64,000 nucleotides of DNA, taken from IMG/VR virus record IMGVR_UViG_3300008107_006173; one strand, written 5' to 3'. The translations under genes and the position numbers were made by a program. This document shows positions 22,283 to 23,352 of this stretch, piece after piece (within the stretch, counting starts at the first letter, position 1; each line of letters starts with the position of its first letter). Source of the DNA: a virus. Its lineage: Duplodnaviria; Caudoviricetes. The notes below the pieces were generated by a model, which was given only the letters and a program-made list of their open reading frames with translations, made no database searches and was not told the origin of the DNA.

Positions 22283-23131
22283 ATGGCAAAGACACAGAAC
22301 CCATTATCGGGATTTTTTAGAACACCCAAAATGTATACTAAACTACCCAGCCAGGGAAGATTTTATACAGATGATGTAGTCGATATGCCCGAAAGCGGCG
22401 AACTAGCGATCTTCCCAATGACTGCTAAGGATGAGGTTGTTCTAAAAAATCCCGATGCACTACTCAACGGTGAAGCAGTGGCACATGTTATTATGAGCTG
22501 TGTACCTGCTATAAAAAATCCTCGCAAAATGATATCGAATGATATTGAAGCATTACTAGTTGCGATTCAAGGCGCTAGTCGAGGTGACAATGTTGAAGTT
22601 TCAGGAAAATGCCCAGAATGTGGTGAAATCTGCACATCCACTGCCAGCGTTGAAACTGCACTAGAAACTATGAGCATATTAGAAGAAACTTATAGTTTTC
22701 ACACAGACAGCGGCTTAGAAATTATTCTACGCCCATTCACATACGAAAGTACAATTAAAGCAGGTATTGCTAATTTCCAAAGTACCCGTAGCCTACAAAG
22801 CATTTCAGCAATTGAAGATGAAATGGAACAGCTAAAGGCGTTTAATGCAAGTTTTGTTCGTATTGCTCAGATGAATTTTGATCTAGTCGTAGACAGCGTT
22901 GCCAGTGTCTCTGGTAAAATCAACGGTGAAGAATTTACTGTGTACGATCGTAGTCAAATTAAAGAGTTCTTAGAAAACTGTGAAACTAGCATCGGCCGTA
23001 ATATTGAAAAGCAAATTGAAAATATCAATAAGATTGGCGTTAATAAGAGAATCCAATTGGAATGCGACAAGCATGGTCCATTCGAACAGGATATTGGATT
23101 TGATCCTGTAAATTTTTTCACAGCTTCTTAG
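22283..23131 (+). CDS. T4 gp26-like baseplate hub / tail assembly chaperone
   Basis: LPSQGRFY, PMTAKDEVVLKNPDALLNG, DIEALLVAI, CPECG and CDKHG metal-binding motifs; ends ...PVNFFTAS with a TAG stop. Confidence 0.8.
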   Translation: MAKTQNPLSGFFRTPKMYTKLPSQGRFYTDDVVDMPESGELAIFPMTAKDEVVLKNPDALLNGEAVAHVIMSCVPAIKNPRKMISNDIEALLVAIQGASRGDNVEVSGKCPECGEICTSTASVETALETMSILEETYSFHTDSGLEIILRPFTYESTIKAGIANFQSTRSLQSISAIEDEMEQLKAFNASFVRIAQMNFDLVVDSVASVSGKINGEEFTVYDRSQIKEFLENCETSIGRNIEKQIENINKIGVNKRIQLECDKHGPFEQDIGFDPVNFFTAS

Positions 23132-23352
23132 CACGAGCTACCCCCGAAGAAATCGTTACATTTCTCGGTAGGCTAAGAAGCGAGGCAACCGCAATTCATC
23201 TACAGCTCACTGAACTGGTTGTTTACAGTGAAGGTGCCTTTAGCTGGAGTGAAGTGTGGTTCCTTAGCGGCTATGATAGAGAAACTGCTATTAAAGTTAT
23301 CAATGACTTCAATCGCATTAAAGCCGGCAAACCCAAAAACGAATTCCTATAA
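23104..23352 (+). CDS. Start-less -1-frame extension (gp51-like / gpT-like chaperone C-terminal domain)
   Basis: Open between TGA 23101 and TAA 23350: ...FLARATPEEIVTFLGRLRSEATAIHLQLTELVVYSEGAFSWSEVWFLSGYDRETAIKVINDFNRIKAGKPKNEFL. There is no ATG or TTG, and the only GTG lies far in. It overlaps the slippery run. Confidence 0.75.
   Translation, partial: SCKFFHSFLARATPEEIVTFLGRLRSEATAIHLQLTELVVYSEGAFSWSEVWFLSGYDRETAIKVINDFNRIKAGKPKNEFL
23110..23119 (+). promoter_or_regulatory. Candidate -1 ribosomal frameshift site A-AAT-TTT-TTC
   Basis: Two overlapping X-XXY-YYZ heptamers (A AAU UUU and U UUU UUC) in the gp26-like frame, three codons before its stop. Confidence 0.7.

Follow-up and report, generated by a model that had tools for sequence, protein, structure and literature searches.

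A probable, conserved -1 frameshift in the gp26/gp51-family baseplate-hub gene of giant phages

Introduction

Can a single baseplate-hub gene supply two proteins, by a programmed -1 ribosomal frameshift, where phage T4 uses two genes? The question is raised by a locus in IMG/VR virus record IMGVR_UViG_3300008107_006173, of which a stretch of 64,000 nucleotides (hereafter the window) was analysed. A zero-frame open reading frame (ORF) for a protein of the gp26/gp51 family ends there just past a run of T residues, from which a second ORF without a usable start codon continues in the -1 frame. We consider it likely that this gene (Table 1) makes forms of 282 and 356 amino acids (aa) by ribosomal -1 frameshifting, and that these forms are equivalent to T4 gp26 and gp51, with the frameshift replacing gene duplication. 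For T4, Leiman et al. (2010, PMC3004832, Table 2) list gp26 (208 aa) and gp51 (249 aa) as chaperones of hub assembly, and gp51 is needed for hub assembly and is absent from the finished virion (PMC3004832).

Results and Discussion

The slip site and the open -1 frame

The zero-frame ORF, which has an AGGAG sequence 6 nt 5' of its ATG, ends with GTA AAT TTT TTC ACA GCT TCT TAG, the stop codon lying four codons past A_AAT_TTT_TTC, and its 282-aa product has the C-terminus ...GFDPVNFFTAS. The site contains two canonical heptamers of the X_XXY_YYZ type that overlap, A_AAT_TTT (23110-23116) and T_TTT_TTC (23113-23119). Owing to the T run, a slip on either of them would give the identical product (...PVNFF-HSFLAR..., 277 + 79 = 356 aa), corresponding to 22283..23116 joined to 23116..23352 with a slip back of one base. 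After a TGA at 23101-23103, the -1 frame stays open for 82 codons, from 23104 until the TAA at 23350-23352; its earliest ATG, GTG or TTG is the GTG at 23254, 47 codons past the slip site. The initial annotation of this DNA, made by a reader of the sequence alone, had described the 3' end of the gp26-like ORF, the opening of the -1 frame at 23104 without a usable start, and predicted products of 282 and about 356 aa; all three were borne out, by the sequence and the ORF list, by the position of the first candidate start, and by translation of both frames. The tryptic peptide predicted from the window sequence to span the junction is HGPFEQDIGFDPVNFFHSFLAR, and the two forms would have masses of about 32 and 41 kDa.

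Conservation of the cassette

In a Pfam scan, the 282-aa protein matched T4_baseplate (PF12322) over residues 40-264 (E 8.7e-15; 55.4 bits, the curated cut-off being 24.5 bits), and it also matched the baseplate hub family phrog_150 (E 1.2e-20). With tblastn it matched 95 phage records; among the matches listed, these were giant myoviruses of about 285-490 kb, except for one unannotated 94-kb record, and the homologues in Phosso, PA5oct, Atu_ph07, CBB, PBECO4, XaC1 and Serratia BF were 31-36% identical to it. The homologue in CBB carries the annotation 'structural protein'. A blastn search of phage genomes with the DNA of the locus returned no match, and only protein-level searches gave matches. 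IMG/VR contained relatives at 80 loci (51-89% aa identity). The family body bears Zn-ribbon-like motifs, and no sequence relatives of either the body or the extension were found in the PDB. The body resembles an internal duplication, with two Zn-ribbon-like hairpins and helices after each; the second CxxC of the window protein is degenerate (LECDKHG).

The conservation set consisted of these 80 IMG/VR loci and nine cultured jumbo phages of different genera, among them PA5oct, PBECO4, CBB and Atu_ph07, and comprised 61 distinct sequences. In all 80 loci and all nine phages, the zero frame reads NNT TTT T(T/C)(C/T) 2-10 codons before its stop, and a -1 ORF of 72-102 codons extends from the T run. 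A T5-6 run occupies the slip position in every distinct locus (61/61). Both heptamers are found in 49 of the 61, A_AAT_TTT alone in seven (with TCC as the next codon and a run of T5) and T_TTT_TTC alone in five; each of the 61 has one heptamer or both, as do five further isolates, which keep NNT TTT TTY.

The homologues of the extension (63 distinct peptides, mean column identity 49%) have the consensus FFHGFLA.AEPEEI..YL..L...E.VIYS.G..SW.EAW.MS..ER...VK.LN. Diversity in the -1 frame was 0.42, 0.31 and 0.60 at codon positions 1, 2 and 3, respectively, and the other two frames over the same 70 codons contained means of 5.9 and 7.4 stops and were never open in 56 relatives. The openness of the -1 ORF is therefore beyond chance. 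These comparisons indicate that the extension is a coding region and, because of the pattern of diversity over codon positions, that it is under purifying selection. It has no conserved start codon: the first conserved ATG in the window's clade encodes the Met of W.MS, about 50 codons in, and the residues 5' of it (FLA.AEPEEI..YL..L) belong to the best conserved ones. No ATG, GTG or TTG occurs for 20-47 or more codons in the window, in PA5oct and in most of the window's clade, and PA5oct, which has no annotation in this region, is without a start codon across the entire extension. None of the database records examined for these phages contains a joined coding sequence (CDS).

In three IMG/VR relatives (L072:2370-2657, L075:2370-2648 and L084:2367-2657, -1 frame), the extension is longer by 14-18 residues and ends in ..GFDPVNLE, ..GFDAI or ..GFDPVDLK, echoing the terminal FDPVNFF of the short form. 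This C-terminal peptide may be a functional, possibly binding, motif that some long forms have regained.

An RNA stem-loop 3' of the slip site

A stem-loop is predicted 3' of the slip site (Table 1), with an outer stem of 10 bp formed by GCUUCUUAGC and GCUAAGAAGC. Only 1 of 200 dinucleotide shuffles folds as well. It starts 6 nt from A_AAU_UUU, inside the 5-9 nt range expected for the RNA structure of a frameshift site, and 3 nt from U_UUU_UUC, and the zero-frame stop UAG (23129-31) lies inside its 5' arm. The hairpin at 23136-23174 proposed in the initial annotation does exist, but it is merely the inner part of this larger structure, which begins nearer the slip site.

Averaged over 72 loci, the minimum free energy (MFE) of 60-nt windows reaches the lowest value of the whole profile exactly at the slip site. 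The native sequence was more stable than shuffles with synonymous -1-frame codons in 60 of 61 loci (mean z -2.3, with 72% below -1.64), a count that overstates independence, given that the loci are related to each other. These results point to selection for the stability of the stem-loop at synonymous sites. The 5' arm is conserved, (G)GCUUCYUAG, and at least three different solutions for the 3' arm are visible.

In-frame fusions, paralogs and copy number

In a search of 1.8 billion proteins, a profile hidden Markov model (HMM) of the extension matched 278 relatives, most of which were called as ORFs of 43-102 aa. Three of them, from three uncultured lineages (P0170, P0198 and P0245; 336-346 aa), are in-frame fusions with the extension domain placed C-terminally on a PF12322 body, and the fusion junction, ..NLFRAKL.., aligns with ..NFF-HSFLAR.. 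of the window. Since such fusions exist, the extension appears to work as the C-terminal part of the family body. The contigs of all three also carry a second, short PF12322 paralog immediately upstream, with ..DFFQKK, ..SFFND or ..NFLPDNQ before its stop codon, and this end point is the same in the short form of the window (..NFFTAS) and in T4 gp26 (..EFFELL). A word-based homologue search with the fused form P0198 returned this sequence alone.

T4 has two copies of PF12322, and the FF codons of its gp26, TTC TTT, are non-slippery. As counted in relatives of the window phage, a single copy was found in each of eight complete genomes of frameshifting isolates and in a 91%-complete IMG/VR relative of 340 kb; the count was zero in the ninth isolate, SCTP-2, its copy being too divergent for the Pfam model. 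The complementarity between one-gene and two-gene phages, together with the fusions, therefore suggests that the frameshift stands in for gene duplication.

Relationship to T4 gp26 and gp51

Both gp26 and gp51 are full-length PF12322 paralogs, with very low sequence identity to the window protein. Genes 26 and 51 of T4 are divergently transcribed neighbours rather than a tandem pair and use no frameshift, whereas the window gene has a slip site. T4 gp26 stops three residues past its FF, as the short form of the window stops three past its own, and gp51 runs on into a four-helix tail with the order of elements seen in the extension. T4 gene 26 is also annotated with a product, 26', of an internal in-frame start (NC_000866). 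The 26/26' gene and the window gene have in common that two sequence-sharing products come from one family gene, but 26' is N-terminally shortened, whereas the long form of the window would be C-terminally extended by frameshifting.

The tail of gp51 has the pattern ..FKLLxNPDEIF.FY..INH.LVK..Y....IM.MIP.ER..AL.LIEK, with which the extension aligned collinearly in hhalign (P 7e-4 to 1.3e-3). The extension HMM matched 92 of 92 gp51 homologues, again collinearly, at their last 30 residues (about 220-251), with a median of 4.1 bits; the 1840 shuffles used as a control gave a median of -2.5, a 95th percentile of 1.0 and a maximum of 6.4 bits. A five-sequence family profile gave weak, off-register hhalign alignments with single T4 gp51 and gp26, and an in-silico profile of the fused product gave an alternative, off-register alignment with full gp51, for which an internal repeat in the family, comprising two Zn-ribbon modules, is the probable cause. 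In hhalign, the segment ..YS.G..SW.E.W..S..ER..VK.LN of the extension was also placed on the segment that follows the first hairpin of gp51 (..Y.W..L..e.k..vIdaI), and the tail may thus be a third copy of that helical module.

The fold was assessed on the fused relative P0198, standing in for the window's own protein. Its AlphaFold (AF2) model (mean predicted local distance difference test score, pLDDT, 87.9; predicted template-modelling score, pTM, 0.85) has a beta-hairpin followed by helices at 256-266, 269-296, 303-307 and 311-331, the means over 10-residue blocks being 77-95 pLDDT in the extension helices. The AlphaFold model of a gp51 that is 95% identical to that of T4 (pLDDT 92.7) has a beta-hairpin and helices at 196-203, 208-221, 226-231 and 234-249. 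After the hairpin, both models have the order short, long, short, long, although gp51 has a second tail helix shorter by about 12-14 residues than that of the fused relative. Foldseek searches with the P0198 model against BFVD gave baseplate hub (assembly) proteins as the top matches (E down to 1e-15), including gp26 of an Aeromonas phage; the same model had no match in the PDB at E<=0.001, and VIA-align wide returned only generic helical-hairpin matches (Z<=8.1). The gp51-like domain suggested for the -1 frame in the initial annotation may be kept in a restricted form: the weak match (P of about 1e-3) and the common four-helix topology concern the C-terminal tail of gp51, of about 55 aa, and not the whole gp51 domain. 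The newer Pfam family PF28602 is annotated beside PF12322 on gp51 homologues (P0004-P0095), and probably covers this C-terminal tail.

Proposed mechanism

We propose that most ribosomes would stop at UAG 23129 and release the 282-aa short form. A fraction would slip back one base on A_AAU_UUU_UUC, with re-pairing of tRNA-Asn and tRNA-Phe or of two tRNA-Phe, probably helped by the stem-loop, and would read the -1 frame to 23352, giving a 356-aa form with the same body and a helical C-terminal domain of 77 residues. The short form would correspond to T4 gp26 and the long form to T4 gp51, and the two likewise to the tandem short and long paralogs of some uncultured phages; the frameshift would replace gene duplication and fix the ratio of the two forms. 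On a model like that of lambda G/GT, the body common to both forms would hold the tape measure or the hub, and the tail of the long form would recruit another tail part.

T4-type phages are not, to our knowledge, known to have a tail-chaperone -1 frameshift, and we found no report of a frameshift in gp26/gp51-family genes in the literature searched, which covered few subscription journals. What would be new is that an established recoding strategy serves an unrelated protein family in a different tail-assembly lineage. Giant phages of a very large, widespread group strictly conserve the cassette in their only gp26/gp51-family gene, and its recognition would correct the annotation of hundreds of genomes in which the extension has been missed or called as an orphan small ORF. 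It would also explain the two paralogs of T4 as a short form and a long form, and it predicts that the ratio of short to long form matters for tail assembly. Cultured phages are on hand as test systems (PA5oct, PBECO4/121Q, CBB and Atu_ph07).

Alternative explanations

Several observations weigh against frameshifting as proposed here. Both slippage on the ribosome and the long product are predictions from sequence. The T run is partly due to codon bias, TTT making up 72% of Phe codons, and two of the three uncultured short paralogs keep a T run without a -1 ORF behind it. In these two (L092:1002-1040, AAT TTT TTA; L098:1666-1704, TCT TTT TTC), the run precedes the stop and the -1 frame closes at once; such a run could be the relic of an ancestral frameshift or could reflect the same bias towards TTT. 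RNAalifold found no common structure in 57 aligned slip regions (four trivial pairs), because the codons at which the 3' arm lies vary from clade to clade, and folding at the slip site is weak in PA5oct and CBB. In sequence, the extension resembles the gp51 tail only weakly. Lastly, an ATG that overlaps the stop lies a few codons past the slip site in Phosso, Atu_ph07 and PBECO4, and in these lineages the extension could therefore be made separately, by coupled re-initiation.

If this last arrangement were general, the locus would hold two genes, and the extension would be a small protein in its own right (7-9 kDa), translated by re-initiation coupled to termination or from a non-canonical start. 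A small downstream CDS is indeed annotated in seven phages (Phosso, CBB, PBECO4, XaC1, Vibrio 2.275.O, SCTP-2 and RAS14), the ATG overlaps or closely follows the stop in the three lineages just named, and the short ORFs called for most matches of the extension profile would be in keeping with it. However, the annotated starts are internal, and their positions differ and are not homologous, the extension is conserved yet start-less in its N-terminal part in the window's clade and PA5oct, the -1 frame opens just before the T run every time, and the in-frame fusions show the extension domain as a C-terminal part of the family body. The initial annotation had suggested that homologues be checked for a conserved slippery heptamer and a missing ATG; one heptamer or both were found throughout the 61 distinct loci, and the ATG is missing in most of the window's clade and PA5oct but not in Phosso, Atu_ph07 and PBECO4. 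Two separate genes thus seem to us very unlikely as the general explanation. The arrangement could alternatively be an artefact: an indel in the T run, introduced by sequencing or assembly, might have split what is really one fused gene, or the locus might be a decaying pseudogene. The error-prone nature of homopolymer runs speaks for this view. Yet the same arrangement of frames recurs in 61 distinct loci from independent samples and in nine isolates, and the extension shows the signs of purifying selection described above. The indel that the initial annotation had named as contrary to its reading was not seen: the contigs of three independent DNA studies agree, without a gap, as does one metatranscriptome contig, with the limit that contigs hide rare variants and that the contig from the RNA library may be DNA carry-over. 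We regard an artefact as extremely improbable.

The same 356-aa protein would also result if RNA polymerase added an extra U to the T6 run in some transcripts, which would then be translated normally. The slip site is a homopolymer run, the products of the two routes are identical and comparative data cannot separate them, and a minor U7 species would be compatible with contigs, which drop rare variants. Efficient transcriptional slippage in bacteria, on the other hand, needs runs of about 8-9 or more, whereas the run is T6 in the window and T5 in the seven distinct loci that keep A_AAT_TTT; moreover, the sole metatranscriptome contig over the site has T6. Because the run is limited to 5-6 T, both heptamers are canonical ribosomal sites and a stable stem-loop, with its apparent selection at synonymous sites, lies at the right distance, 6 nt past A_AAU_UUU, we find polymerase slippage very unlikely and favour frameshifting on the ribosome.

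Genomic neighbourhood and distribution

The gene is flanked on its 5' side by a divergent gene for a protein of 1061 aa (Table 1). Searches of Pfam, PHROG and, by tblastn, phages gave no match to this protein, and its language-model features were nearest to the tape-measure clusters PF10145 and PF20155 (scores 0.93-0.95). It is probably the tape measure protein, although likeness in a language model is only a lead; its counterparts beside the hub gene in PA5oct, CBB and XaC1 carry the annotation of virion structural proteins. The head module (13128-18911, minus strand) lies directly behind it, and it is unusual for a head-gene operon to begin with a tape measure gene.

On the other side, about 530 nt without an ORF follow the extension (from 23353), and the GIY-YIG-like gene beyond them may be a mobile insertion beside the hub gene. 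Two further ORFs on the minus strand (24356-27153; 593 and 338 aa) resemble, by their motifs, the T4 gp46/gp47 (Rad50/Mre11-type) subunits of a recombination nuclease, and Atu_ph07 has an annotated gp46 exonuclease near its hub gene.

DNA near-identical to positions 22700-23500 is present in contigs of 14 sequencing runs (share of sampled words 0.81-1.0), which belong to freshwater, estuary and 'fungus metagenome' studies dated 2017-2025. The window's phage is therefore widespread across fresh and brackish water.

Table 1 Features of the gp26/gp51-family locus and its surroundings (positions in the window)
Feature	Position	Strand	Basis or description
Major head protein	13128-14270	-	phrog_138
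Prohead protease	15408-16031	-	phrog_207
Portal	17181-18911	-	phrog_213 (E 1.5e-118)
Probable tape measure protein, divergent neighbour (1061 aa, Ala/Gly-rich)	18997..22182	-	Language-model features
Short-form zero-frame ORF, gp26/gp51-family baseplate-hub assembly protein	22283..23131	+	282 aa; PF12322, phrog_150
Slippery sequence A_AAT_TTT_TTC	23110..23119	+	Two overlapping -1 heptamers
-1 frame extension, putative C-terminal domain of the long form	23113..23352	+	79 codons from the FF codons, plus stop
Predicted stem-loop 3' of the slip site	23123..23181	+	MFE -22.4 kcal/mol; z -2.99 against dinucleotide shuffles
GIY-YIG-like ORF (142 aa)	23889-24317	-	phrog_7363, phrog_314 (GIY-YIG homing endonuclease), phrog_447

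Comparison with other frameshifting systems

The Escherichia coli dnaX gene, which encodes tau and gamma, resembles the window gene, as read here, in having a homopolymeric heptamer, a stem-loop a few nucleotides downstream and two protein forms in a set ratio. The -1 frameshift in dnaX shortens the protein, whereas that of the window would lengthen it, and dnaX also uses an upstream element like a Shine-Dalgarno sequence, of which no conserved counterpart was seen upstream of the window slip site.

Lambda-like and P2-like phages characteristically have a programmed -1 frameshift in their tail chaperone genes, and P2 E/E+E' slips on TTTTTTG. Xu, Hendrix and Duda (2004, as cited in PMC9024508, ref. 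38) described a -1 frameshift that long-tailed phages conserve in their tail assembly chaperone genes. The window gene is like lambda gpG/gpGT in its canonical heptamer near the 3' end of the upstream ORF, its start-less -1 extension, the N-terminal body that its short and long forms would share, and its position next to a probable tape measure gene; the T4 members of the family are, moreover, listed as assembly factors and not as parts of the virion. The body of the window protein differs from lambda G in its length (282 versus 140 aa) and in its Zn-ribbon-like motifs. Two points tell against a closer relationship. The window gene is divergent from the probable tape measure gene, whereas the lambda pair lies between the tube and tape measure genes, and hhalign detected no similarity to lambda G (P 0.41) or lambda T (P 0.75), so that the suggestion in the initial annotation of a gpT-like domain is not supported. 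A Pfam scan of the window protein likewise found no Phage_TAC_2, Phage_tail_T or other tail assembly chaperone (TAC) family, whereas lambda G and T themselves, used as a control, matched PF06894 and PF06223.

The wider connection between the gp26/gp51 pair and the logic of G/GT, also put forward at the outset, is supported by the conservation of the slip site, the fusions and the complementarity of copy numbers, and by analogy the short and long forms would have a chaperone role like that of G and GT. We suggest tentatively, and with some doubt, that the gp26/gp51 family may be the T4-type counterpart of lambda G/GT: a protein of unrelated fold with a convergent design, in which a short and a C-terminally extended form are made in a fixed ratio, the body chaperones the tape measure or the hub, and the helical tail recruits the next tail component. 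If this is the case, giant T4-related phages would have reached the short/long design by a -1 frameshift and T4 by gene duplication, and the roles of gp26 and gp51, unclear for decades, would become directly testable.

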